Assembly: GCA_965261385.1 (NCBI GenBank)
Contig: CBDHDB010000001.1
Span: forward strand, 161,145-225,144
DNA: 64,000 nucleotides
Direction of reading: 5' to 3'
DNA from: Dehalococcoidia bacterium
GTDB lineage: Bacteria; Chloroflexota; Dehalococcoidia; Lucifugimonadales; Australimonadaceae
Under the pieces are notes generated by a model that worked only from the letters and a program-made list of their open reading frames with translations, was not told the origin of the DNA and made no database searches. Position 1 is the stretch's first letter; each line of letters starts with the position of its first letter. The position numbers and the translations under genes are program-made. Shown here piece by piece: positions 3,988 through 49,030 of the stretch.

Positions 3988-4701
3988 ATGACGTACCCGC
4001 TATTCCACCACGATGCCTACGCCCGGAGCTTCCAGGCCCTAGTGACTGCCGCCGACGGCCCTGCGGCTGTGCTGGACCGCACAGCCTTCTTCCCCGGCGG
4101 GGGTGGTCAGCCCTGCGACACCGGTACGCTGACGGTCGGCGGCGCCGTTCTCAGGGTAACGTCCGTCAAGCGGCGCGACGGCGAAATATGGCATGAGCTC
4201 GACGGCGGCGGAGTCGACGTAGGCGCCAGTGTCCACGGAGAGGTGGACTGGGACAACCGGCATAAGCTCATGCGTACGCACACGGCGCTCCACATTCTGT
4301 GCGGCGTAATTTGGCGCGATTTCGGCGCCCACGTAACAGGCGGGAACATGACGCCCCTCGCGGCCCGGATGGACTTCGAGCTCGAGCAGATGAGCGTCGA
4401 TTTCGCCGAACGCATCGAGGAGCTGGCCAATGCCGAGATAGCGCGAGGGCGCGGCGTCAGCGTCCGTTTCCTTCCGCGCGACGAGGCTTTCGCCCACCCT
4501 GACCTCATACGCACGAAGATCAATCTGCTGCCCGAGGGCATCCAAGAGATCCGCATCGTCGATATCGACGGCCTCGACGTTCAGGCGGACGGTGGGACGC
4601 ACGTGGCCAACACGCGGGAGGTGGGCCGCATAAGTGTGGTGGGGCACGAGAGCAAGGGACGCATCAACAAGCGCCTCAGAATCATCGTGGAGGACGCATA
4701 G
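3988..4701 (+). CDS. alaX: alanyl-tRNA editing protein AlaX-M type
   Basis: 237 aa with HTALHIL and GGTHV zinc/editing-site motifs of the Ala/Thr-tRNA synthetase second additional domain. Confidence 0.8.
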   Translation: MTYPLFHHDAYARSFQALVTAADGPAAVLDRTAFFPGGGGQPCDTGTLTVGGAVLRVTSVKRRDGEIWHELDGGGVDVGASVHGEVDWDNRHKLMRTHTALHILCGVIWRDFGAHVTGGNMTPLAARMDFELEQMSVDFAERIEELANAEIARGRGVSVRFLPRDEAFAHPDLIRTKINLLPEGIQEIRIVDIDGLDVQADGGTHVANTREVGRISVVGHESKGRINKRLRIIVEDA

Positions 4702-4751
4702 CACGACTTCAGCGACCTGGCGCTGGCAGGCCGGCGGCGCTCTACTTCTGG

Positions 4752-5606
4752 GTGGGCGTCGGGGTGCTGTGCGTTTCGCTCGCCTCCATTTTCATAAGAC
4801 TCGCGGACACCGACCCGCTCACCGTCGCCGCCTACCGGATGACCATCGCCAGCGTGGTGGTGTCCGCCGTCACCGTCGCGCTGGCTCGGAATCAGCTCTC
4901 AGCGGTCAAGCTCGGCGACCTTCCGCTTCTGGGCGTCTCCGGCGTGTTCCTCGCGGCGCACTTCGCGCTCTGGATCACATCTCTCTCACATACTTCAGTC
5001 GCCAGTTCCGTCTTGCTGGTGACAACGACTCCCGTATTCGTTGCGGCAGCGGCTGTCCTCTACACGAACGACCGCATCGGGCGGGTGACCACGGCGGCTA
5101 TCTTGGCGAGCATGGCGGGCGGCGCCCTCCTCGCCGCGGGTGACTGGGCGGAGGGCGAGCAGCGACTGAGCGGAGACGCGCTCGCTCTCGCCGGGGCCGT
5201 TGCCGTAGCCGGCTACTTGATTGTGGGCCGGAAGGTCCGCGGACGCATCCCCAATCTTCCGTACATCACGGTGGTGTATGCGGCCGCCGCCGTGGTCCTG
5301 GTGGTGGCGGCGGTCGTAAGCGGCGCGCCGTTGCTGGGACTCCCCATCGAGACGTACTTCTGGATGGCGATGGCGGCGCTAGTGCCGCAGGCGATCGGCC
5401 ACTCTCTCCTGAACTGGTCGCTCGCCTACTGGCCCGCGACCAACGTGACGCTTGCCGTGAGGGCCGAGCCGGTCATCGCGACACTGCTCGCGATTCCGGT
5501 TCTCGGCGAGGTCCCGCCCTGGACGGTCATCCCCGGCGGAGCTTTGGTGATGCTCGGGGTATACCTCGCGGTCAAGAGCGAGAGATCGCGCCAGCCGGAC
5601 GTATAA
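4752..5606 (+). CDS. EamA/DMT family transporter
   Basis: 284-aa polytopic hydrophobic protein (~10 TM) with two EamA-like halves. GTG start. Confidence 0.75.
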   Translation: MGVGVLCVSLASIFIRLADTDPLTVAAYRMTIASVVVSAVTVALARNQLSAVKLGDLPLLGVSGVFLAAHFALWITSLSHTSVASSVLLVTTTPVFVAAAAVLYTNDRIGRVTTAAILASMAGGALLAAGDWAEGEQRLSGDALALAGAVAVAGYLIVGRKVRGRIPNLPYITVVYAAAAVVLVVAAVVSGAPLLGLPIETYFWMAMAALVPQAIGHSLLNWSLAYWPATNVTLAVRAEPVIATLLAIPVLGEVPPWTVIPGGALVMLGVYLAVKSERSRQPDV

Positions 5607-5615
5607 TCGCGTCCC

Positions 5616-7337
5616 ATGCTCGTCGAACTGACCGTCCAAAATCTGGCCGTCATCGAAGAGACCCGCCTTACCTTCACGCCGGGGTTGAACGTGGTCACCG
5701 GCGAAACCGGAGCCGGGAAGTCGCTCCTCGTCGACGCCCTGGAGTTCGTTCTCGGCGGAGCGGCCGACCGAGACCTGATGCGAGCAGGGGCGGCGTCCGC
5801 AAGGGTCGAGGCCGTGTTCGCGACGGCCGGCGAGCCCCAAGTGCAGCAAGCCCTCCGCGCGCTCGATGTGGAGATCGACGATGAGGGACTCGTTGTGCTG
5901 GCCCGCGAGGTTCACCGCGAAGGTCGGACTATCTCGCGGCTGAACGGTCGCGCGGTGCCGGTTGGGATTGTTCGCGCGGTGGGCGACGCGCTCGTGGACA
6001 TCCACGGGCAGGGCGCTCACCTGTCGTTGCTAGACCCTTCCTACCAACGCCGTGTCCTGGATGACTGCGGAGGACTCGCTGAGCAGCGGAGGGCTGTCGC
6101 GGGCGCTATTGCCGACGTGGAGCGTATCCGACAGGAGCTCCTAGCCATCGCATCCAACGCACGCGACGCTGAGCAGAAGCGCGACCTGCTCGCCTTCCAG
6201 GTGAACGAGATCGACGCGGCGGGGCTGGCGCGCGGGGAAGAGGAGGCGCTGGTCCGTGAGCGCGATGTCCTTGTGAGCGCGGAGTCCATCCGCGAGGCGT
6301 GCGCCGCAGCATACGGCATGCTCCGCGAGGAAGGGAGCAACGCGGCCGACCTCATCGCGGAGGCGGTCCAAGCTCTTCGTCGCGCACCCGACCCAACGGG
6401 CGTCCTAGGCGCGCAAATCGAGGCATTAGAATCAGCGTCCGCTCAGATCGAGGAGGCGGCCCGCGAGACGCGCTCCTTCGGCGAACGCGTCGAATCCGAC
6501 CCCACGCGCTTGGCTGAAATCGAGGAGCGCATCGAACTCCTCCGCCGCCTCAAGCGTAAGTACGGCGACTCCGATGTCGAGGTCATCGCATTCGCCGATG
6601 AAGCCCGCCGCCAGTTGGAAGGAATCGACAATGCCGAAGAACGACGCGACGAAGCGGCGCGAGCGCTCTCCGGCGCAATGGAGCAGGCGGGCAAGCTCGC
6701 GTGGGAGCTATCCGAGGCGCGGAGTGCAGCGGCACGCTCCCTGAGCGCCGCTGTCGAAGCGGAGCTCGGCGAGGTCGGTTTGGACGGTGCCGCATTCGGC
6801 GTTGAAATCGAACGAACTCAGGCGAGCGACGGCCTCCCTGCGCCGGACGAAGCACACTACGCCTACTCGTCCGACGGCATCGACCGAATATCGTTTTCGC
6901 TCCGCGCGAACCCCGGCGAGGACATGAAGCCCCTTGCCACGGTCGCCTCCGGCGGAGAGACCTCCCGCATGATGCTTGCCCTCAACAGCGCGCTCCAAGC
7001 CACGTCCGGCGCGCCGACGCTCGTGTTCGACGAAATCGACGCTGGCATCGGCGGGCGAACGGGAACGGTCGTCGGCGCAAAGCTGTGGACTGTCGCCAGA
7101 CGCGCGCAAACGTTGTGCGTCACGCACCTCCCGCAGATAGCCGCCTACGCGGACAGACACTTCCGCGTCGACAAGGCGGTGTACGGAGAGCGCACATACG
7201 CCAGCGCCGAGGTCGTGGAGGACGAGCAACGCGTTGCCGAATTGGCCGGGATGCTGGGCGACGGAGACTCGGCGAGCCTCTCCGAGGCGGCGAGAGAGAT
7301 GCTGAAAGACGCGACGCGCTCGAAAACTGGCGTCTAG
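5616..7337 (+). CDS. recN: DNA repair protein RecN
   Basis: 573 aa. N-terminal Walker A GETGAGKS, long coiled-coil middle, C-terminal ASGGETSRMMLAL signature and LVFDEIDAGIGG Walker B. Confidence 0.92.
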   Translation: MLVELTVQNLAVIEETRLTFTPGLNVVTGETGAGKSLLVDALEFVLGGAADRDLMRAGAASARVEAVFATAGEPQVQQALRALDVEIDDEGLVVLAREVHREGRTISRLNGRAVPVGIVRAVGDALVDIHGQGAHLSLLDPSYQRRVLDDCGGLAEQRRAVAGAIADVERIRQELLAIASNARDAEQKRDLLAFQVNEIDAAGLARGEEEALVRERDVLVSAESIREACAAAYGMLREEGSNAADLIAEAVQALRRAPDPTGVLGAQIEALESASAQIEEAARETRSFGERVESDPTRLAEIEERIELLRRLKRKYGDSDVEVIAFADEARRQLEGIDNAEERRDEAARALSGAMEQAGKLAWELSEARSAAARSLSAAVEAELGEVGLDGAAFGVEIERTQASDGLPAPDEAHYAYSSDGIDRISFSLRANPGEDMKPLATVASGGETSRMMLALNSALQATSGAPTLVFDEIDAGIGGRTGTVVGAKLWTVARRAQTLCVTHLPQIAAYADRHFRVDKAVYGERTYASAEVVEDEQRVAELAGMLGDGDSASLSEAAREMLKDATRSKTGV

Positions 7338-7495: not shown

Positions 7496-8527
7496 TTAGG
7501 GCGTTTGCGCCTCGGGGATCTCGTCCGTCGGGGCGGGCTCGACGGCCTCGCGCTCAGGCGCGGCGTTGCCCTCGACCGTTGCGTCGCCCTCGATTGCGGC
7601 GCTCATCGCAGCGATAGCCACTTCGATCTGGCCGTCGTCCGGCGGGCGGGTGGTCAGCGCCTGCAAGGCGAGGCTGGGCAGGGTTCCGGCGCGCACGAGA
7701 GCATTGCCGCTGTGCGCGGCGTTGAAACGGATTACCTCGTAGGCGACTCCCGCAATCACGGGAATGAGGATGATCCGCGAGGCGATGCGCAGGGGAAGAT
7801 CGGGCGTGCCGAGGAAAGCAAATATGATGATTGACACAATCATCACGGTGAGCAAAAAGGCTGTTCCACATCGGGGGTGCGCGGCGGGGAAGAGCCGCAG
7901 ATTCTTGTTCTCCAAGGACAGCAACGCCTCATGCGTGTGGACAGCCATGTGCTCGGCGGCGTGATAGCCGAACACCCGGCGAATACTCGGCATGAGGCCC
8001 ACCAGGCCGAGGTAGAGGAAGAAGATGACGAGCCGGAGCACGCCCTCGCCGGTGTTGCTGATTATCGAATTGTCCGTGAAGCGATCGATGAACCCGGCGG
8101 TGAGCAGCAGGGGCAGGATGAAGAAGAGACCCACGCCCAAGCCAAGGGATATGGCCAGCGTGAGCGCGAGGGTCCAAGGCGGGATCGGCTCGTCGTCGTT
8201 CTCGTCTTCCCCGGCGGCGACCTGGGCCGAGTAGGTCAGAGCACGCATTCCGACGACAAGGGACTCGGAGAGGACGAGTGTGCCTCGGATGAAGGGTATG
8301 CGCCGCCAGCGGTTGACGCTCCAAGTGGGCACGGAACGCGTAACGGTCTTGATGGCGCCGCTTGGGTGGCGGGCGGCTACGGAGTAGACGTGACGCCCCC
8401 GAATCATCACGCCTTCGATGACCGCCTGTCCCCCGTAGACCGAGTGTTGCTGTGGTGCTGCTGCCATGCCCTTAGGATACGAAACTGCCCCAGTCTTTGC
8501 GCTGGGGCAGTCGAACAGTCTCTTCAT
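7496..8527 (-). CDS. DUF1385 (YqhQ-like) membrane protein
   Basis: GGQAVIEGVMIRG N-terminal motif followed by TM helices. Sits directly downstream of rpmE, a common context. An alternative start at 8467 is possible. Confidence 0.8.
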   Translation of the reverse strand: MKRLFDCPSAKTGAVSYPKGMAAAPQQHSVYGGQAVIEGVMIRGRHVYSVAARHPSGAIKTVTRSVPTWSVNRWRRIPFIRGTLVLSESLVVGMRALTYSAQVAAGEDENDDEPIPPWTLALTLAISLGLGVGLFFILPLLLTAGFIDRFTDNSIISNTGEGVLRLVIFFLYLGLVGLMPSIRRVFGYHAAEHMAVHTHEALLSLENKNLRLFPAAHPRCGTAFLLTVMIVSIIIFAFLGTPDLPLRIASRIILIPVIAGVAYEVIRFNAAHSGNALVRAGTLPSLALQALTTRPPDDGQIEVAIAAMSAAIEGDATVEGNAAPEREAVEPAPTDEIPEAQTP

Positions 8528-12504: not shown

Positions 12505-12778
12505 GGGCAAAGTCCCCGACTTTCGATGAGGTTACGAGTGAAAAGTCCCTGATTCTCGGTGAGGTTACGAGTAAAAAAAGTACCCGAAAATCGACGACAT
12601 TGAAGGGTTGACAGAGGGCGTTTTCGTGGCCGTGGCCTGCTTCCTAGACCTTGGAACTACTTCCTGACCGAGATTGTTTTCTTATTGGCATGCGCCCCGC
12701 CTCCTCTCTCAGTCCCCCGCACACGGGGGCGGAGGGAACGAGTGCGGCGCCGGTTGGCAATGGGCAAGTGTCACTGTG
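12505..12778 (-). repeat. composite element copy B (gene-less derivative, inverted orientation)
   Basis: On the minus strand: CACAGTGACACTTGCCC (12778-12762). A REP-b hairpin. CGCATG remnant of the rep 3' end. TCAGGAAGTAGTTCCAA (12667-12651), an identical 17-mer to 48851-48867. AGGAAGCAGGCCACGGCC (12645-12628). Two 23-25 bp direct repeats plus a terminal half repeat (12585-12505). Confidence 0.75.
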
Positions 12779-12831
12779 CATCGGCGAAGCGCCTGCGCTG
12801 GAATGACGGGGAGGCGCGGGGAGGGCTGCGA

Positions 12832-12853
12832 GGTTCCCGCCTGCGCGGGAACC
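12832..12853 (-). repeat. REP-a palindromic element (core)
   Basis: GGTTCCCGCCTGCGCGGGAACC. An adjacent degenerate half, GCCTGCGCTGGAATGACGG, lies at 12791-12809. Confidence 0.8.
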
Positions 12854-12908
12854 CCTCATGTTGGGCTGATGCCCCACACCACAACCGACGAAAGTAGCGG
12901 GCCGGGCG

Positions 12909-12950
12909 GCCCCCTCTCTAACTCTCCCCCGCAGACGGTGGAGAGGACTT
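12909..12950 (-). repeat. REP-b element
   Basis: Reverse complement of CTCTCCACCGTCTGCGGGGGAGAGTTAGAGAGGGGG. Near-identical to units at 47003-47063 and 47231-47291. Confidence 0.8.
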
Positions 12951-26802: not shown

Positions 26803-26885
26803 TCCTCTCCCCGTCTGCCCCAATCCCTTCCCCTGTCTGCTCCGGTCCTCTCCCCCGTCTACGGGGGAGAGTTAGAGAGAGGGTC
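26803..26885 (+). repeat. REP-b element
   Basis: ...CTGTCTGCTCCGGTCCTCTCCCCCGTCTACGGGGGAGAGTTAGAGAGAGGGT. Same family as 47003-47063. Lies between the divergent Mo-oxidoreductase and ccmA genes. Confidence 0.8.
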
Positions 26886-26956
26886 CGCGCGTCTGCCCGC
26901 CAAGCAGGGCGACCCGCAGGGTACACTAGCAGCCAGGCGCGCCGCGCCGCCTCATC

Positions 26957-28374: not shown

Positions 28375-29135
28375 TCTTGGCAATTGTGAGGGCCAACCGC
28401 GAGGCGCGGTCGGCCGTGTGGCGGCAGGGGCTGCTCCTCTTGGCCGGAGCCCTCGTCCTGATCGACCTCTACATGATTTTCGAGCACGCGCCGACCGAGC
28501 GCGTCATGGGGATCGTGCAGCGGCTCTTCTACTTCCACGTCCCCGTCGTCCTCACCAGCTTCATCTCGTTCGCCGTGGCGGCCGTGGGCAGCGCCGTCTA
28601 CCTGACGAGGCGCAGCCGCGCATGGGACCGGCTCGCCTACGCGTCCGCTGAAGTCGGCCTCGTCTTCTTCACCATCGCCATCATCACCGGCGCGGTATGG
28701 GCCAAGCCCGTGTGGGGAACATGGTGGGTCTGGGACGCCAACGGCACCCTCACCTTCGTCCTCTGGCTCATCTTCATCGGCTACCTCATGGTCCGCGCCT
28801 ACGCCCCCGACGCCGACCGCGGCCGCCGCTGGTCCGCCGTCGTCGGCATCATCGGCGCGGCGGCTGTTCCGTTCGTCTACAAGGCCGCGGACTGGTGGGG
28901 CGGCCTGCACCCCGAGCGCGTCACCGGCCCCGGCGCCGAGGGCTCGCTCGAAAGAGCAATGCTCACCACCCTCCTCTTCTCCTTCGCCGCCTTCCTTGTC
29001 CTCTACGTCGCGCTCATCGCCGAGCGGACCGCCCAACGCAAAGACGAGGAAACGCTCGAAGACCTACGCCGGACCATCGACGACCACTCTTCCGTCATTC
29101 CCGCGAAGGCGGGAACCTCGCAGCCCCCAGATTAG
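28371..29135 (+). CDS. ccmC: heme exporter protein CcmC, with a REP-derived C-terminal tail
   Basis: Last ~254 codons of track ORF 27291..29135. GTG 28371 overlaps the ccmB stop (GTGA). WGTWWVWD tryptophan-rich (WWD) motif. The last 16 aa (SSVIPAKAGTSQPPD) are encoded by a REP-a unit. Confidence 0.85.
   Translation: MILAIVRANREARSAVWRQGLLLLAGALVLIDLYMIFEHAPTERVMGIVQRLFYFHVPVVLTSFISFAVAAVGSAVYLTRRSRAWDRLAYASAEVGLVFFTIAIITGAVWAKPVWGTWWVWDANGTLTFVLWLIFIGYLMVRAYAPDADRGRRWSAVVGIIGAAAVPFVYKAADWWGGLHPERVTGPGAEGSLERAMLTTLLFSFAAFLVLYVALIAERTAQRKDEETLEDLRRTIDDHSSVIPAKAGTSQPPD
29093..29117 (+). repeat. REP-a palindromic element inside the ccmC 3' end
   Basis: CGTCATTCCCGCGAAGGCGGGAACC, translated in-frame as VIPAKAGT. 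The stop codon follows 18 nt later. Confidence 0.85.
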
Positions 29136-30223: not shown

Positions 30224-30460
30224 CACTGTGACACTTGCCCCTTACCCAAACCCTCTGCCGTGTTCTATAACTCGCCGCCGCTCATAGAGAGAGCCAATGC
30301 CGATTTGCGTGTTTTCACATTTAATTCGCGCTCTTGAACGCAGGAAGCAGGCCGTGGCCTGCTAAACAGCCCCGATCAAGAAGCCGAAGGTACCCCTTTC
30401 AGCGACACAAACCACCAAGGTTTACGAGTAAAAACCCCCATCAAGAAGTCGATTTGCTCC
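30224..30460 (+). repeat. composite element copy C (most diverged, gene-less)
   Basis: CACTGTGACACTTGCCCCTTACCC (30224-30247). AGGAAGCAGGCCGTGGCC (30342-30359). One inverted iteron-like unit GGTTTACGAGTAAAAACCCCC (30419-30439). Direct repeat CCC(G/C)ATCAAGAAG(C/T)CGA at 30371 and 30436. Confidence 0.65.
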
Positions 30461-30585: not shown

Positions 30586-31692
30586 ATGGGCGACGAAATC
30601 GAGGTCAACCCTTACTACGGGGTCTTTCCGTATACCGACTTCATCAAGGACGAGGGCATCCCAATCCACGAGGCCTACTCCATCGACTGCCATACCGTGG
30701 AGCTCGAGCCGTGGGAGCGCATGGGAGGACTGGGCGCCTATGTCCACCTCGCCGGACGCTCCGACTATCTCTCGTCCTACGTGGTCGAGATTCCCCCGGG
30801 CGGACAGCTCAACCCCGAGCAGCACCTGCACGACGAGCTCATCCACGTCGTTTCAGGACGCGGCGCCACCGTCATCGAGACGCCCGAGGGCAAGAAGTAC
30901 TCCTTTGAGTGGGGGCCGTCCGCCATCTTCGGCATCCCGATGAACGCGAAGCACCAGATATTCAACGGCTCCGGCACGGAGCCCGCCCGGCTCGCGGCCG
31001 TCACCGACCTCCCCATCATCTTCAACGTCTTCCGCGACAAGAGCTTCATCTACGACAACCCGGTCACCTTCCCGTCCCGCTCCGACACCGCCCGATACTT
31101 CGACGGCGAAGGCGAGTTCCGCGAGGTCAAGCCCGGTCGGCATCAGTGGGAGACCAACTTCGTCCCCGAGCTCGTCAATTTCGAGCTTCCGCCGTGGGCC
31201 GCCCGCGGCGCCGCCGGGAACAACATCCAGTTCTTGCTCGCCGACTCGTCGATGCACTGCCACATCTCCGAGTTCCAGCAGGGCACGTACAAAAAGGCCC
31301 ACCGCCACAACGCCGGCGCCCACATCTTCTGCGTCACCGGCGAGGGCTACTCTCTGCTCTGGAAGGAAGGCGAGAACCCCGTGGACACGGTCCGCGTCGA
31401 TTGGAAGCCCGGCTCCCTCTACGCTCCGCCCGACGGGCCCACCTACCACCAGCACTTCAACGTCGCCGACGGCCCCTCCCGCTACTTGGTCTTCGGCTTC
31501 GGCGGCGCGCGCTACCCCGTCCTCGAGTCCAAGATGGTCGGCTACGAGAACATGGACAAGTCCGCCAAGGAAGGCGGCCACCAGATCGAGTACCAGGACG
31601 AGGACCCCCGTATCCTCGACCTCTACGAGACCGAGCTGCAGAAGCGCAGTCTCAATTCCAAGATGCGAGAGTTCGTCGGTTCGCGGACCTAG
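30586..31692 (+). CDS. bicupin metalloprotein (putative dioxygenase), paralog 1
   Basis: ATG 30586 with GGGAGG upstream, 368 aa. Two cupin metal motifs (PGGQLNPEQHLHDELIHVVSG and GTYKKAHRHNAGAHIFCVTGEG). Confidence 0.8.
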   Translation: MGDEIEVNPYYGVFPYTDFIKDEGIPIHEAYSIDCHTVELEPWERMGGLGAYVHLAGRSDYLSSYVVEIPPGGQLNPEQHLHDELIHVVSGRGATVIETPEGKKYSFEWGPSAIFGIPMNAKHQIFNGSGTEPARLAAVTDLPIIFNVFRDKSFIYDNPVTFPSRSDTARYFDGEGEFREVKPGRHQWETNFVPELVNFELPPWAARGAAGNNIQFLLADSSMHCHISEFQQGTYKKAHRHNAGAHIFCVTGEGYSLLWKEGENPVDTVRVDWKPGSLYAPPDGPTYHQHFNVADGPSRYLVFGFGGARYPVLESKMVGYENMDKSAKEGGHQIEYQDEDPRILDLYETELQKRSLNSKMREFVGSRT

Positions 31693-31722: not shown

Positions 31723-32826
31723 ATGGGCGACGACGTCGAGTTCAACCCGTATTACGGAATCTTTCCCTACCGGGAGTTCCTCAAGGAAGAGGGCGTCCCC
31801 GTGTTCGAGGGCTACGCAGTCGACTGCAACACGGTCCCCGTGGAGCCGTGGGGGCGCTTAGGCGGACTGGGCACCTACGTGCATATCGCCGGCAAGAGCG
31901 ACTACCTCTCCGCCTACGTGGTCGAGATTCCCCCCGGCGGACAGCTCAACCCCGAGCAGCACATGCACGACGAGCTCATCCACGTTATCTCCGGGCGCGG
32001 CGCCACCGTCATCGAACGCCCGGACGGCAAGAAGTACTCCTTCGAGTGGGGCCCGAGCGCGATCTTCGCCATCCCGCTCAACGCGAAGCACCAGATATTC
32101 AACGGCTCCGGCACGGAGCCAGCCCGGCTCGCCGCCGTCACGGACCTCCCCGTGATCTTCAACGTCTTCCGCAACCCGGACTTCATCTACAGCAACCCCT
32201 TCCAGTTCCCCGAGCGCATGGCCGCCGAGAAGTACTTCGACGGCGAAGGCGAGTTCCGGCAGGTCAAGCCCGGCCGGCACCAGTGGGAGACCAACTTCGT
32301 CCCCGAGCTCGTCAACTTCGAGCTCCCCCCGTGGCTCGCGCGCGGCGCCGCCGGAAACAACATCCAATTCCTCCTCGGCGACAGTTCGATGCACTGCCAT
32401 ATCTCCCAGTTCTTCGAGGGCACGTATAAGAAGGCCCACGCCCACAACGCGGGCGCGCATATTTTCTGCGTCACCGGCGAGGGCTACTCCCTGCTCTGGA
32501 AGGAAGGCGAGAACCCGGTGGACGCGGTCCGCGTCGACTGGAAGCCCGGCACCCTCTACGCTCCGCCCGACGGCCCCACCTACCATCAGCACTTCAACGT
32601 TTCGGAGGGCCAGTCCCGCTACCTGGTCTTCGACTTCGGGGGCGCCCGCTACCCTGTCCTCGAGTCCAAGATGTGGAGCTACGAGAACATGGACAAGTCC
32701 GAAAAGGCCGGGGGCATGCAGATCGAGTACGAAGACGAGGACCCGCGCATCCACGAGCTCTTCGAGAGCGAACTCGCCAAGCGGGGCCTCAGGTCCCGTA
32801 TGCACGAGTTCGTCCCGGCCAGATAA
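31723..32826 (+). CDS. bicupin metalloprotein, paralog 2 (tandem duplicate)
   Basis: ATG 31723 with AAGGAG upstream, 367 aa. Colinear with paralog 1 and identical at roughly four fifths of positions by eye. Confidence 0.8.
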   Translation: MGDDVEFNPYYGIFPYREFLKEEGVPVFEGYAVDCNTVPVEPWGRLGGLGTYVHIAGKSDYLSAYVVEIPPGGQLNPEQHMHDELIHVISGRGATVIERPDGKKYSFEWGPSAIFAIPLNAKHQIFNGSGTEPARLAAVTDLPVIFNVFRNPDFIYSNPFQFPERMAAEKYFDGEGEFRQVKPGRHQWETNFVPELVNFELPPWLARGAAGNNIQFLLGDSSMHCHISQFFEGTYKKAHAHNAGAHIFCVTGEGYSLLWKEGENPVDAVRVDWKPGTLYAPPDGPTYHQHFNVSEGQSRYLVFDFGGARYPVLESKMWSYENMDKSEKAGGMQIEYEDEDPRIHELFESELAKRGLRSRMHEFVPAR

Positions 32827-43719: not shown

Positions 43720-44913
43720 TCACCGCAACCCGTGGACGGGGAATACCAGGCGCTTGATCTCGTCCGTCTGCTCCTGAGCGTAGGCGCGGGCCTTGGCGCG
43801 GATATCGGGGGCGACCGTCGCCGTCCCCTCGTCGTCGCGCAGCCGCGGGCTTTCGAGGAAAGCGCCGGCCTCGACGGGCAGCTCGTCGGGCCAGTCGCGG
43901 CCCAGCATCGCGCCGTAGGCGAGGGTCCAGCACCGGGGCACGGCGTCCAGGTCGTAGCCGCCGCCGCCGAACGCCAGCCACGGATAGCCCATCGCGCCCA
44001 GACGCTCGACGGCGGCCATGTACCCGTGCGTGCTCAGACTCAGATGCGTGAGCGGGTCGTCCACGTAGGCGTCCGCGCCGAGCTGCGTCGCGAGCACGTC
44101 CGGCGCGAACGCCTCGATCAGCGGCGGGACCACCTGGTCGAACGCATCGAGGTAGATGGCGTCGTCCGTGTACGGAAACAGCGGCAGGTTCACCGAGTAG
44201 CCCGCCGCGTCCCCAGCCCCCAATTCGGCGACCGCGCCCGTGCCGGGGAACAGCCAGCGCCCGCTCTCATGGATGGATATCGTCATCACGTCCGTGTCGC
44301 GGTAGAAGGCGGCCTGTACACCGTCGCCGTGGTGCGCGTCGATGTCCACGTAGACCACCCGCAGCCCGCGCTTCCGCAAAGCGTTGATGGCGACGACGGG
44401 GTCGTTGAAGATGCAGAACCCGGAGGCCCACCCGCGCATCGCGTGGTGCAGCCCGCCCGCCGGCGCGAACGCCGCCGACGCCGCGCCGTCCGCTACGAGC
44501 TCCGCCGCCTGGACCGACGCTCCCGTAGAGAGCAGCGCCGCCTCGTACATCCCCGGATAGACCGGATTGTCGCCCTGTTCGGAGAACCCGTGCCCCCCTC
44601 CGTCATTCCCGCGTAGGCGGGAATCTCGTCCCCTCGCCGTTCCCCCGATAGCCGGATCGGGCTGCTCCTCGCCGCTGCTCAGACGGCGCACGACGTCGAT
44701 GTAGCTCTCAGTATGGAACGTTGTGAGCTCGTCCATCGTCGCCGGACGCGGCGCGACGAGCATCGCGCTCTCGTCCTCGAATGCCCCGTAGGCGCGGAGT
44801 AGCTCGTAGGTGCGCTGAAGGCGGACGGGGACCATCGGGTGGCCCTCCCTCAGCACGTGGCGCGATAACACCTCGTCATAGACATACGCCGCCCTACCGC
44901 CTAGATGAGTCAT
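43720..44913 (-). CDS. histone deacetylase family / acetoin utilization AcuC-like deacetylase with an in-frame REP-a insert
   Basis: 397 aa. GGLHHA, DIDAHHGDG and ...GGGGY motifs. The segment ...TARGRDSRLRGNDGGGHG... is encoded by a REP-a unit on the opposite strand. Confidence 0.85.
   Translation of the reverse strand: MTHLGGRAAYVYDEVLSRHVLREGHPMVPVRLQRTYELLRAYGAFEDESAMLVAPRPATMDELTTFHTESYIDVVRRLSSGEEQPDPAIGGTARGRDSRLRGNDGGGHGFSEQGDNPVYPGMYEAALLSTGASVQAAELVADGAASAAFAPAGGLHHAMRGWASGFCIFNDPVVAINALRKRGLRVVYVDIDAHHGDGVQAAFYRDTDVMTISIHESGRWLFPGTGAVAELGAGDAAGYSVNLPLFPYTDDAIYLDAFDQVVPPLIEAFAPDVLATQLGADAYVDDPLTHLSLSTHGYMAAVERLGAMGYPWLAFGGGGYDLDAVPRCWTLAYGAMLGRDWPDELPVEAGAFLESPRLRDDEGTATVAPDIRAKARAYAQEQTDEIKRLVFPVHGLR
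44601..44625 (+). repeat. REP-a palindromic element inside the deacetylase CDS
   Basis: CGTCATTCCCGCGTAGGCGGGAATC. Read on the minus strand in-frame as DSRLRGND. Confidence 0.85.
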
Positions 44914-45407: not shown

Positions 45408-46730
45408 ATGGCGTCACGAGAGAAGCAGAGAAGGATCGACGACCAATGGCAAGCCCTGCAACCGGGCTGGGGCCGGAAAGACTACAAGGGTGAGCGAAAG
45501 ATGCTCTACGATCTGCTGGAACCCGGCGAAGACGTCGAGCTACTGCACACGTGCGGCTTTGAGACCAAGAATGTAACGTGGGGCTCCCGCCATGACCGGG
45601 GGGTCGTGGTCGCTACCGGGCGCCGGGTAATCTTGCTGAACCGGGGCCGGTTGTCCAAGAACCGCTTTGGTCTGACTTACCTGGAAATTGACGAAATCAC
45701 GGAACCGGGACCCGGCAGGATTAGGCTCAGAGAGTCTGGAAGTGGCGACGCTACGGACAGCGAGTCGGGAGCAGTCTTTGACCTGGACTTGCAATTTGCG
45801 GCCGCTGACTTCTCCCGGTTTGTAAGAGGCCGTCTGCTGAGCGACGAAGAGTCGGTCGCGGCGGCATTTTCCCATGTCCTGGCGCGTGGAGAACAGGTCC
45901 GGCATTGGGCGCGCTGCTCAGCGGGACCGGAAACGGTCTTTCATAATCCTGGCAGTGGGGGCGGCCCGAGCGGGAGTCACACTCCGGAATCTTGGGAAAC
46001 GTCATGGGATGGCTGGCCGGCGCTCGCTGTGGACACCGGGCCCCGTATACTGCTCATTACGCTCGCTGTGGACACCGATTTGCTCCTTCATGCGCGGGAG
46101 GAGGAAGTAATCGAAATCCACGGGAGCATCCTGTCGGTGGAGTACTGGGGAGGCACGCGAGTCCGGTTCGTAGACGTGGACGCCCGGGTCCACGCTCTAG
46201 AGTTCAGGAAGGAAGCCGACGCAACCCAGTTTGTGGACCTGATTAGTCAGCATTTCGGGACAGCGGCGCGGCGGGTGTCTGCTGAGGTCAGGATTTCCGC
46301 CGAATGGAAACTGCAACACCCCCTTTGGGACCGCAGGAAAAACCATGGCGGCGAGCGCCGCAAGCTCGCGGAAATCATGGATGACGACGAGCATATCGAA
46401 GCGCTAGCTTGGGGCGATTATCGCCCGGCGGGGGCGAAAGAGGAACTCTACGGAGGCATCATAGCCGCCACCGGTCGCCGGCTCCTGTTGGTGAGCAACG
46501 GCCTGCTGCAGAAGAATGTCAGCCAGTTGCCTTACGAAGGGATAGATGGCGTCGCCTTGAAAAGCGGTGATCTGATCATCACCGCCAAGTCGGGACATAG
46601 CGGGTATGAGATCTTCAGCATAGACGACATGGATCCTCACCATTCCCGAAACAAGGGATACGGCGAAGTATTTGCATCACGTCTTCAGGTGCTGGTCGGA
46701 ATCGCTCACCGACAGGCATCAGCACCATGA
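45408..46730 (+). CDS. protein with three bacterial PH (YokE/bPH-like) modules
   Basis: 440 aa with GGAGGG upstream. N- and C-terminal modules share the pattern E(R)K(M/L)...L.PGE/DDE.(V/I)E.L..G.....G(V/I)..ATGRR.(I/L)L(L/V)..G...KN......Y..ID. Lower GC than the backbone. Confidence 0.65.
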   Translation: MASREKQRRIDDQWQALQPGWGRKDYKGERKMLYDLLEPGEDVELLHTCGFETKNVTWGSRHDRGVVVATGRRVILLNRGRLSKNRFGLTYLEIDEITEPGPGRIRLRESGSGDATDSESGAVFDLDLQFAAADFSRFVRGRLLSDEESVAAAFSHVLARGEQVRHWARCSAGPETVFHNPGSGGGPSGSHTPESWETSWDGWPALAVDTGPRILLITLAVDTDLLLHAREEEVIEIHGSILSVEYWGGTRVRFVDVDARVHALEFRKEADATQFVDLISQHFGTAARRVSAEVRISAEWKLQHPLWDRRKNHGGERRKLAEIMDDDEHIEALAWGDYRPAGAKEELYGGIIAATGRRLLLVSNGLLQKNVSQLPYEGIDGVALKSGDLIITAKSGHSGYEIFSIDDMDPHHSRNKGYGEVFASRLQVLVGIAHRQASAP

Positions 46731-47002: not shown

Positions 47003-47063
47003 CCCCTCTCCCCCGTCTGCTCCGGTCCTCTCCACCGTCTGCGGGGGAGAGCTAGAGAGGGGG
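47003..47063 (+). repeat. REP-b element (first copy of a ~95-bp direct duplication, 47001-47095)
   Basis: CCCCTCTCCCCCGTCTGCTCCGGTCCTCTCCACCGTCTGCGGGGGAGAGCTAGAGAGGGGG. Confidence 0.85.
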
Positions 47064-47134
47064 CCGCCCCACCCGCCAATCAACGCCCCCGCACCCATCA
47101 TCGCCAAGCCCATCCGTCATCGCCACGCCCCACC

Positions 47135-47159
47135 TGTCATTCCCGCGAAAGCGGGAATC
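47135..47159 (+). repeat. REP-a palindromic element
   Basis: TGTCATTCCCGCGAAAGCGGGAATC. Confidence 0.85.
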
Positions 47160-47175
47160 TAGGACGCCCACTTTC

Positions 47176-47200
47176 CGTCATTCCCGCGCAGGCGGGAACC
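47176..47200 (+). repeat. REP-a palindromic element
   Basis: CGTCATTCCCGCGCAGGCGGGAACC. Confidence 0.85.
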
Positions 47201-47230
47201 TCGCAGCGGCGCGACAGCGGCGCGGTCCAT

Positions 47231-47291
47231 CCCCCTCTCCCCCGTCCGCTCCGGTCCTCTCCACTGTCTGCGGGGGAGAGCTAGAGAGGGG
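47231..47291 (+). repeat. REP-b element (second copy of the direct duplication, 47229-47323)
   Basis: Differs from 47003-47063 at two positions (TCTGC/TCCGC and ACCGT/ACTGT). The flank GGCCGCCCCAC(C/T)CGCCAATCAACGCCCCCG is also repeated. Confidence 0.85.
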
Positions 47292-47393
47292 GCCGCCCCA
47301 CTCGCCAATCAACGCCCCCGTCCCACCAACCACCACTGTGACACTTGCCCCTTACCCCAACCCCCCTCCCCCACGTAAAATTAACGCCAGACA

Positions 47394-47427
47394 GGCCCTG
47401 GGAAGCACGGCGACCCGGGGCCTTTTT
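47394..47427 (+). terminator. terminator-like hairpin in the leader of the rep-like gene
   Basis: GGCCCTGGG, 11-nt loop, CCCGGGGCC, then TTTTT. Lies 28 nt upstream of ATG 47455. This segment is absent from copy A. Confidence 0.4.
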
Positions 47428-47454
47428 GCATCCTTGAAACAGAGGCCCCCCACC

Positions 47455-48830
47455 ATGCCCACTCCCCAAGACGACAACTACCTCCACGCCGTCTCACGCG
47501 CCCTCCGGTGCGGCAACCCCGATTGCCCGTGCGCCTCCGAACCCCCGCGACTCCACTGCCCCATCCACCCCACTCCCGACGTCCCCACCCTCACCGTCGA
47601 CTTCGACGATTACCTCGGCTTCACCTTCCAATGCTCCTCCGACTCCTGCGACGACGCCCGCATCGCCTCCGCCCTCGCCAAACGCGGACTCGCCCCCGAC
47701 TCATGGCTCTACACCTCCACCGGCGCCCAGGAAGCCGGACTCAACCCCCTCTCTCTCATGGTTCCTCACCCGCAAGACTGGCTATGGCCCAACCGCATCC
47801 CCATGGCCGCTCTCACACTCATCGCCGGATTCCCCGGCTCTGGCAAGACCGCCATCGCCCTCGACATCGCCGCACGCGTCTCCGTCGGCGCCCCTGCCCC
47901 CGACAACCCCAATGCTGCCTTCCTCCGTGCTCCCGTCCTCATCGCTCCCTTCAACCGCGCCCCCGCTTCCGCCATACCCCTCCTTCGCGCTTTCCGCGCG
48001 GACCTCTCCCTCATCTACTTCGCCGATACCCTCTCACCCGAGCACCTCGCCGATCTCCCCGAAGGCCAGTCTCTCCCGGACTACGAGGCCCTCGAGCACA
48101 AGGCCAAGCTCCACGACAGGGCACGCTCCATGGAGGACCTCTGGCAGTCCCCCATGCCCGACGAGATGAAGCGGCCCCTCAAGGTCCCCGACCGTCCTCC
48201 CTGGCCCGGACTTGACCTCCTCATGCGACGCCTCCACAACCTCATCGTCCGCGGCAGCGTAGCTCTCCTCATCGTCGACCAGGTCCGAAGACCTCGCCGC
48301 CCGCCGCGCCGCACGGCCCCTCACCGTCCTCGGCAAGCTCAACGGACTCGCCGCGCGCACCGGCGCCGCCGTTATCGCCATCGCCCACAATCCCGAGCCC
48401 GCGCTCCCAAAGGCCGCTCACTCCCTGCGCCGGACCCTCTCCGCCGCCGCCGTCGTCTTCACCACTGCCCTCGCCAGACCCAACCGTCGACGTGTCCTCT
48501 TCCCCCTCCGCCCGCCCATCGACGATGCCCCTCCCCCCATTCCCTACTCCCTCGCATCCCCCCAAATCGCCTGGCGCAAACCCATCCCGCAACGCCGCTC
48601 GCAGCTTCATCCTGCACGCCCTCGCCGGCGGCCCCAAACCCGCCGCCCGGATCAAGCAGGAAGCCGAGGACCTCGGTATCTCCAAACACCAACTCGCACT
48701 AGCCCGCGCCTTCTACAACGTGACAACTGTGAACACCCGGTCCAAGGATTCCACTGGGAAGCGGTGGTGCTGGACTTTCCCTCCCGCGCCCCCCTCGCAA
48801 GAGACGGTTCCCCTGGAAATCCCCGCATGA
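47455..48830 (+). pseudogene. replication-initiator-like gene (primase-type Cys/His finger, P-loop RepA/DnaB-like ATPase, C-terminal wHTH), two frameshifts
   Basis: Frame 1: MPTPQDD...CGNPDCPC...HCPIHPTPDVPTLTV...FQCSSDSCDD, Walker A GFPGSGKT, Walker B LLIVDQV. Shift near 48283-48287 to EDLAARRAARPLTVLGKLNGLAARTGAAVIAIAHN. Shift near 48581-48593 to ARSFILHALAGGPKPAARIKQEAEDLGISKHQLALARAF...KRWCWTFPP. Confidence 0.7.
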
Positions 48831-48932
48831 ATTACAGAACAAACATCAGTCAGGAAGTAGTTCCAATACCCAGGAAGCAGGCCACGGCCATAAAAACACG
48901 CCCCGCCAGCCCTGTTTTCGCATGTTTTTCCG

Positions 48933-49030
48933 GGAAGTTTTGACTCGTAAGCCAATGGGAGACTCGGGAATTTTTTACTCGTAGCAAAAATGAGGTGGGG
49001 AACTTTTTTCACCCAACGGGGAACTTCCCG
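48933..49030 (+). repeat. iteron-like direct repeat array
   Basis: GGGAAGTTTTGACTCGTAAGC (48933), GGGAATTTTTTACTCGTAGC (48967), GGGGAACTTTTTTCACCCAAC (48998), terminal half GGGGAACTTCCC (49019). Spacing is 34, 31 and 21 nt. Confidence 0.7.

Follow-up and report, generated by a model that had tools for sequence, protein, structure and literature searches.

What kind of unit is formed by a decayed gene that is framed by a conserved box on its left and by a repeat array on its right, and how do several such units come to lie within a short piece of one chromosome? The question is raised by a stretch of 64,000 nt (hereafter the window) from a Dehalococcoidia bacterium (contig CBDHDB010000001.1, positions 161,145-225,144), in which the element that we call copy D occupies nt 47334-49030. 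An earlier note had taken D for the longest of four copies of a replication-initiator-and-origin (rep-ori) element, and had found their dispersal puzzling. Comparison with relatives in other genomes shows D and four gene-less copies (A, B, C and E) to be relics of self-contained modules with a single gene each, a family found in SAR202-type Dehalococcoidia. Each module is, as far as sequence comparison can tell, a cognate pair of a site-specific ATPase and an array private to it, which has its own promoter, forms a unit of one gene, and derives from replication proteins of mobile elements. The family appears to be undescribed: no description of such modules was found in the literature on SAR202 mobile elements, on AAA_25/PF13481 origins, or on iterons of Chloroflexi. 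The host lineage is abundant and uncultured, occurring in the ocean and in sponges, and to our knowledge almost nothing is known of the mobile-element biology of SAR202-type bacteria.

A conserved single-gene layout

The D protein, conceptually repaired, has more than 190 close homologs, all of them AAA_25 proteins and all from Chloroflexota assemblies, with several paralogs per contig. A scan with one genome per species yielded the set of 80 loci considered here, which come from about 22 metagenome-assembled genomes of Dehalococcoidia/SAR202, at three to eight per chromosome of about 3 Mb. The loci have a common layout of upstream promoter box, gene and 3' array, the latter consisting of a universal 17-nt box, a universal core, and four to six copies of a locus-specific word. 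The upstream box is TGACACTTGCCCCTTACCCC-N..-TAAAAT in the clade of the window and GTYGAWT-N3-TGACACGCGCCCGTTGCGC-N18-TACSAT-N6-ATG elsewhere in the family; it looks like a promoter for a leaderless or short-leader mRNA, a leaderless message being what the N6 spacing between TACSAT and ATG in the wider family would imply.

The 17-nt box, GGAAGCAGGCCRYGGCC, is found 50-100 nt past the stop codon in about 70 of the 80 loci, even where the proteins are 41-48% identical, and is better conserved than the protein. It is trailed by a conserved tail, TTGNAAACACCCC, and then by the conserved core, (C/T)ACTCGTAA. Its centre reads GT in 33 loci, AC in 17, AT in 4, and GC in none; the loop of a hairpin in the 5' untranslated region (UTR) is reverse-complemented in locus L009. 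Among the matches listed by a metagenome scan for the box, at least 120 in number, none has an array core and all are chance matches.

The locus word is 10-12 nt long, with the consensus CAAG-N4-CCA; it is constant within a locus, variable between loci, and practically never found in the other 13 kb of a locus. Its copies stand at fixed offsets from the box, at -25 (inverted), +35, +43, +88 and +113 (inverted), and pair as inverted repeats on either side of the box and, again, at the distal end of the array. In the clade of the window, a unit composed of the word, a T-run and ACTCGTA is repeated two to four times at a spacing of 32-34 nt and closes in a palindrome of the word; D, A, B, L006 and L007 have two to four such tandem units, that is, adjacent direct repeats as in iteron plasmids. 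The left box was also considered as a copy of the word, which was rejected because the left box is constant and the word is not. In L015, five tandem 11-nt units of the sequence CAAAGTCACCC follow right after the array (about 7672-7730); L022 has two at the same flank.

The winged helix and the word vary together

The C-terminal domain of the protein is a predicted winged helix, and its divergence is matched by that of the word. Over 406 locus pairs, word distance correlates with winged-helix distance at a Spearman coefficient of 0.53, and at a partial rank correlation of 0.515 when the distance of the N-terminal and ATPase parts is given, a value reached in none of 2000 permutations; the partial correlation of word distance with the N-terminal/ATPase distance is 0.006. 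Mosaics occur both ways, such that proteins about 90% identical over their first 400 residues have different winged helices and words, and the reverse. One residue of the recognition helix switches together with the word: TL-F-RAR goes with AAGAGTGCCA, AL-H-RAR with AAGATTTCA, TL-V-RAR with AAGAATGTCA, and TL-K-RAR with AAGGAGTGCA. Since the word tracks the winged helix and not the ATPase, with mosaics in both directions, the two appear to form an exchangeable specificity cassette, in which binding is suggested by co-variation.

The protein as a descendant of primase-helicases

An AlphaFold model built from an alignment of 108 sequences (pLDDT 77.6) comprises an N-terminal domain, a disordered linker, a RecA core, and the C-terminal winged helix (pLDDT about 90). 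The N-terminal domain has 80 residues, of which Y9, C19, C24, C26, H34, C35, H38, C60 and C65 are invariant; Walker A (GxxGSGKT) and Walker B (hhhhD), in the part that takes a RecA fold in the model, are invariant in the family as well. Against the PDB, a sequence profile search gave only P-loop-level matches, and a fold search recovered nothing beyond the generic RecA/KaiC/RAD51 fold; among viral models, the top structural matches are to AAA, primase, Prim-Pol-AAA and replicative-helicase proteins of phages (E = 2e-15). In an exhaustive profile search the family proper is small, the next tier follows at an E of about 1e-40, and more than 11,000 proteins are reached at 1e-10. The proteins of the next tier share the ATPase and the C-terminal region and have longer N-termini; the sampled ones carry Prim-Pol with PriCT_1, or Toprim.

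A Pfam scan of the repaired D protein finds AAA_25 alone, with no match to a Rep family (Rep_3, RPA type) and no primase domain, in place of which stands the 80-residue Cys/His N-terminus. Alignment of the family with its 55 nearest outgroup proteins shows that SAED, which is conserved in the relatives and contains the catalytic Glu, has become LNG, FNR or PLK (N or K for E), that HLxK has become HNP with loss of the Lys, and that a DQ(V/I)E motif has been gained. The protein is thus a primase-less and probably helicase-dead descendant of mobile-element primase-helicases, and an ATP-dependent switch that binds its site is more likely than a motor. It is under selection to the extent that the reading frame is intact in 63 of 66 complete loci and that dN/dS in close pairs is 0.16-0.35. 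A role in defence was also considered and is unsupported: NCBIfam and PADLOC gave no family, only P-loop matches to mad8 and TRIP13.

What the earlier note had recognised as a rep-ori layout therefore holds in its arrangement, since the array stands 3' of the gene across the 80 loci, intact homologs included, and since the protein comes from a replication lineage; it does not hold as a classical iteron initiator, the protein having no Rep_3-type or other Rep-family domain and having lost the catalytic Glu. We use the word initiator below for a putative function.

Five relics in one window

Copy D opens with a left box, likely a promoter, at 47334-47385 (+), which consists of TTACCC-N18-TAAAAT and a conserved upstream element TGACAC..GCCCC, and which is also found upstream of the intact homologs L001-L010; its motifs CACTGTGACACTTGCCCCTTACCCC (47334-47358, +) and CGTAAAATTAAC (47374-47385, +) lie exactly where they were first reported. 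When D was scanned with consensus models of sigma-70 promoters and of terminators, the proposed left-box promoter was not picked out. The box is followed by a 5'UTR hairpin with a T-run (47393-47428, +), whose loop, GGAAGCACGGCGA, is like the 3' box, and which is conserved in L001 and L004-L007. The gene at 47455-48830 (+), for an ATPase with zinc-finger-like, AAA_25 and winged helix-turn-helix (wHTH) parts, requires two frame changes, for an extra C near 48285 and for a deletion of about 56 nt near 48590, and is therefore truly decayed, as had been claimed. Its repaired product has 461 residues, matches the AAA_25 profile at 8.5e-14, and is closest to P0001 among intact relatives (87% identity).

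Beyond the gene, TCAGGAAGTAGTTCCAA (48850-48866, +) and AGGAAGCAGGCCACGGCC (48872-48889, +) are both present, each starting one base earlier than first stated. A short palindrome ahead of the box, GGAAGTAGTTCC (48853-48864, +), corresponds to the S' arm of the wider family, and GGAAGCAGGCCACGGCC (48873-48889, +) is the copy of the universal box in D. The array (48932-49030, +) is laid out as in L001, L006, L007 and L010. The repeats do end at 49030, but what had been counted as three direct repeats and a terminal half are two full units (48932-48965 and 48966-48996), a partial unit (48997-49017), and a terminal palindrome, GGGGAACTTCCCG (49018-49030); each unit joins the locus word GGGRAnTT to the core TTTACTCGTA, and the repeat word is GGGAAC. 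Scans of the window for tRNAs and against Rfam gave no matches.

The box GGAAGCAGGCCRYGGCC recurs in the window at 2340, 12628 (-), 30343 and 48873, and the left box at 2152, 12755 (-), 30228 and 47338. For each, four occurrences compare with 0.01 expected, and four are reached in none of 100 shuffles, so that the similarity on which the four-copy family had been proposed is significant; the order and relative orientation of the boxes are identical across A, B, C and D. Copy A (2148-2538, +) retains the left box, about 21 codons from the start of the gene (ATG at 2207), and, after an internal deletion, the box (2340-2356) and four units with the word GGACAAC; it resembles L006/L007. Copy B (12505-12778, -) has a degenerate left box (12774-12755), a REP-like (repetitive extragenic palindromic) insertion, the box (12644-12628), and two or three units with the word GGGNACTTT; it lies at the boundary of an inversion relative to the syntenic L048, L064 and L068. 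In copy C (30224-30460, +), which resembles L004/L005 and has an array of their subtype, the left box and the box (30343-30359) are both present, the core is inverted (TTACGAGTAAAA), and the word is ATCAAGAAG. Directly downstream of C, a 300-nt direct repeat (30586-30885 and 31723-32022, 79% identity, 1137-nt spacing) marks tandem paralogous genes.

To these four the comparison adds a fifth, copy E (45075-44990, -), a truncated array that is cut right after the position of the box and has lost both box and gene. It is 95% identical to L009 7442-7576 and is the positional ortholog of the intact L009/L008 module; relative to D, it belongs to a different subfamily, has the opposite orientation, and lies at the other end of the same intergenic gap. 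The space expected for its gene is occupied by an open reading frame (ORF) of 440 codons (45408-46730, +) with a weak bPH_3 match (4.5e-7), which has no counterpart in the syntenic L008/L009.

Since each gene-less copy has a repeat word of its own, A, B and C are independent internal deletions of different modules, neither derived from D nor mobilised by it. The proposal that they are deletion derivatives resembling miniature inverted-repeat transposable elements (MITEs) fails on their different subfamilies and words, and on a search of about 0.9 Mb of flanks around the other loci, which revealed no further gene-less arrays. The five repeat clusters of the window are explained as dead relics: all five copies are inactive, and five dead copies in 64 kb are a feature of the lineage of this genome, whose nearest relatives also hold module pseudogenes (for example L004).

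Two modules of different subfamilies are found about 37-45 kb apart on one contig in at least six genomes (L013/L026, L014/L034, L011/L077, L028/L030, L023/L053 and L052/L066). Modules may cluster regionally, and the window likewise packs five copies into 64 kb.

The modules as proposed minimal initiator-plus-origin units

The layout of the modules, their ancestry and their orthogonality argue for an initiator with its origin, and we tentatively favour, at somewhat less than an even chance, the explanation that modules of this family act as minimal initiator-plus-origin pairs. The winged helix of each protein would read only the words beside its own gene, and the conserved N-terminal domain, or a host factor, would read the universal box; ATP-dependent oligomers would then form on the array and open or remodel its DNA. 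The module would in this way be a minimal unit similar to the Rep-ori of phage-inducible islands or to P4 alpha with ori/crr, the difference being that, having lost primase domain and catalytic Glu, it would have to recruit the helicase and primase of the host. Several orthogonal modules could share one chromosome because their specificities differ, and these specificities would diverge to avoid cross-talk.

A further step, by which SAR202-type chromosomes would use orthogonal pairs of initiator and cis-site as extra private start sites for replication or for local over-replication, with archaeal multi-origin chromosomes as the nearest parallel, seems improbable to us. The same low standing is given to the joint proposal that such start sites would be units drawn from a domesticated primase-helicase without its enzymes and would form exchangeable cassettes at fixed intergenic sites.

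Several observations weigh against an initiator with its origin. The protein has neither a primase nor a Rep-family domain, and with the catalytic Glu and the Lys of HLxK lost, a processive helicase is doubtful. No relatives were found in PLSDB plasmids or INPHARED phages by tblastn or in a scan of IMG/VR, which also removes the support for the satellite element that the earlier note had entertained, and no free circular form is seen among the module-bearing contigs. No clear AT-rich unwinding element was recognised in the modules, where A/T-rich stretches are only short (TTGNAAAC after the box, T-runs in the clade of the window), and no DnaA boxes were identified, a search aimed at them not being possible without the consensus of the host. 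The shift in GC skew across modules, taken over 67 loci, is a weak one of +0.017 (p = 0.013), with gene orientation as a confounding factor, and the GC-skew switches in the window are not at D. Winged helix and array are physically adjacent, and this linkage could explain part of their co-variation. Finally, a function in replication leaves the arrival of modules at fixed sites, and their flipping and replacement there, unaccounted for.

Three gene-only contigs of 1.8-2.1 kb were considered as free minicircles and rejected; they have no terminal overlap, end in repeats, and are assembly fragments.

Insertion, inversion and replacement at fixed sites

No neighbouring gene is conserved across the 80 loci, and in none of them is the module linked to an integrase, transposase or relaxase; what had been noted of the window in this respect extends to the family, and the intact genes whose existence the earlier note had suggested checking are indeed there, but with no integrase beside any. 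The neighbours include MFS transporters, short-chain dehydrogenases, amidohydrolases, CoA transferases and Rieske oxygenases. In L208/L209, two divergent amidohydrolase genes are separated by a 217-nt spacer without a module; the same genes flank a module of the L017 type, which in the occupied genomes is placed between the promoters of the two genes. The module is thus an accessory insertion. The intergenic DNA of the empty site is too diverged to read a target-site duplication.

In 48 locus pairs that have both flanks in common, the module is collinear in 29 and in opposite orientation in 19, the 5-kb flanks being collinear still. In three site groups (L012/L021, L015/L022 and L017/L040/L046) the gene of the flipped module matches as closely as the flanks do, so that these are true inversions in place. 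Most of the remaining pairs, whether collinear or flipped, have a gene whose divergence exceeds that of the flanks by about 10 percentage points (for example 73% vs 94%), which indicates that it has been replaced and that a different member of the family occupies the same site. Site-specific re-insertion, allelic replacement by flank homology, loss of a partner from head-to-head pairs, and recombination between REP-like palindromes could each underlie this turnover. The hallmarks of an invertible segment were not found: no recombinase is linked to the module in the 80 loci, and no terminal inverted repeats borne by the module were seen, its ends (CACTGTGACAC... and ...AACTTCCCC) not being inverted copies of each other. 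Part of the puzzle of dispersal is in this way described, in terms of pattern rather than mechanism, as fixed intergenic sites, presence or absence, flips and replacement.

Presence and absence at an orthologous intergenic site, the 19 flips in place and the three groups of true inversions among them, and replacement elsewhere are what would be expected of a site-specific mobile cassette. Its ATPase-wHTH protein would be an accessory or target-selecting ATPase similar to TnsC, MuB or IstB, its left box and array hairpins would be recombination substrates, and the recombinase would be provided in trans, by the host or by another element. The internal-deletion copies A-C keep both ends, flipped forms exist of the hairpin loops and of the box centre (the GT, AC, AT and GC counts given above), and there are weak profile matches to TnsC and to a phage transposition ATPase. 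We nevertheless consider such a cassette unlikely, since the modules have no terminal inverted repeats, the empty sites are too diverged to read a target duplication, a recombinase is linked in none of the 80 loci, and the gene-less copies are neither amplified nor in possession of the words of D. Allelic replacement through homologous recombination of the flanks, or loss of one member of a head-to-head pair (as D and E are), could moreover give the same pattern, and REP-like palindromes, which are crowded at the junctions, could bring about the flips.

These palindromes, unrelated to the module, are often found at its junctions. One, TTCCGTCATTCCCGCGCAGGCGGGAA, occurs in the window at 1959-1999, 2074-2114, 29090-29130, 44598-44638 and 47132-47213, and inverted at 12825-12851; the copies at 44598 and 29090 lie inside or at the end of ORFs, and in some AAA_25 homologs the unit is read in frame (VIPAEAGIQ in P0024, VIPAKAGIQ in P0100). 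It resembles, we presume, the dRS3-type ATTCCC-N8-GGGAAT repeats of Neisseria. A second REP-like hairpin, CTCTCC..CCGTCTGCGGGGGAGAG, occurs at 26823-26911, 47003-47091 and 47232-47320, inverted at 12897-12948, and outside the window in L002 (5268-5330) and L010 (about 5780-5830). Genes for IS110-family transposases in L002/L003 and L010 end exactly within this unit, which suggests that these insertion sequences target it. In L051, the module promoter is separated from the conserved flank by a low-GC gene of about 1.6 kb (4063-5918, minus strand), which the syntenic L014 does not have; module sites may collect other insertions as well.

The loss of the catalytic Glu and Lys, with Walker A and B kept, can also be read as a deliberate loss of helicase chemistry in a DNA-binding protein that serves the host as an ATP switch at a private site, whether as a local fork barrier, as a chromosome-organising anchor, or as a regulator of neighbouring genes. 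Purifying selection across deep paralogs, the stability of sites across species, and the fact that modules stand between metabolic genes, in intergenic DNA that contains promoters (the gap between the divergent P and Q promoters being one example), agree with this. We hold it to be a rather poor prospect all the same, as the pairing of one protein with one site under diversifying specificity is typical of selfish or incompatible units and not of host regulators, as in several loci (L051, L053, L066 and L067) the downstream gene is convergent and the array abuts its stop codon, and as the module is dispensable, given the empty site and the death of all five copies in the window.

The inverted pairs of words could form two hairpins, which in some loci fold better than shuffles (z = -4.6 and -3.8); in D and L014 the arrays do not (z = +0.4 and -1.05). 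The mismatches between arms comprise 17 GT/TG and 22 AC/CA, with no strand bias towards G:U, which speaks for protein-binding sites in the DNA and against RNA stems; the same word serves both the hairpins and the tandem copies within a locus, as RNA stems would not require. The least likely of the rivals, and an improbable one, is thus an ordinary family of paralogous genes whose flanks are a promoter and terminator or 3'UTR hairpins and whose supposed iterons are RNA stems drifting by compensatory change: the position of the array in the 3'UTR, the strong predicted hairpins of some loci and a left box that fits a promoter with a leaderless start are outweighed by the use of one word per locus, the absence of both a G:U bias and an Rfam match in the window, the folding of the D and L014 arrays, and a box of 17-30 nt that is invariant across proteins only 41% identical, far beyond the need of a terminator.

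Significance and comparison with known systems

Modules that prove to be origin-like would be the smallest self-contained units of initiator and site known and the first case of many orthogonal units on one bacterial chromosome. This would bear on the avoidance of cross-talk between replicons and on the question whether a chromosome with several origins is workable in bacteria. Whatever their function, they offer dozens of natural pairs of winged helix and DNA word, together with an apparent specificity-switching residue, for the study and engineering of DNA recognition, and a clear case of a cassette of one gene that undergoes exchange and inversion at fixed sites without a linked recombinase. 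They are unusual in being autonomous with one gene only, in having a non-coding box that is better conserved than the protein, and in being flipped and replaced at fixed sites.

The gene-less copies A, B and C are like MITEs in being short and in keeping both ends of a full-length unit; they differ in having no terminal inverted repeats, in not being amplified, and in stemming each from a different full-length subfamily. The primase-helicases of integrative elements and phages that combine Prim-Pol or Toprim with AAA_25 and wHTH share with the module protein the ATPase family PF13481, the C-terminal region (E of about 1e-40 to the family profile) and Walker A and B; in the module, the 80-residue Cys/His domain replaces the primase, and SAED and HLxK are lost. 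RSF1010 RepA, the archetype of AAA_25, matches the module protein only at E = 0.3. In the TraB-clt system of Streptomyces, a RecA-fold ATPase reads, by its C-terminal wHTH, short repeats at or just past the 3' end of its own gene; the module shares this arrangement, whereas TraB is a membrane-associated protein with an FtsK/SpoIIIE domain, and the module protein is an AAA_25 protein without an FtsK match.

The Rep/ori of Staphylococcus aureus pathogenicity islands and P4 alpha with ori/crr pair an NTPase of replication lineage, which ends in a winged helix, with element-specific repeats directly 3' of the gene. The module shares the winged-helix NTPase, the cognate 3' repeats, a C-terminal domain (here a predicted wHTH) that by co-variation matches these repeats, and a specificity that differs between coexisting elements. 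Unlike phage-inducible chromosomal islands and P4, it has no primase domain, catalytic Glu, integrase, excisionase, or packaging or regulatory genes, and no relatives in the phage and viral collections searched; it is a single gene in three to eight chromosomal copies, with a universal 17-nt box and core in all members.

In archaea with multi-origin chromosomes (Sulfolobus, haloarchaea), each origin lies beside its own Orc1/Cdc6 or WhiP gene. The module differs from these in occurring in a bacterium, in its protein family, in the weakness of its GC-skew evidence, and in that its role as an origin is putative; it has in common with them several initiator-like genes per chromosome, private inverted and direct repeats, and a specificity that is set gene by gene.

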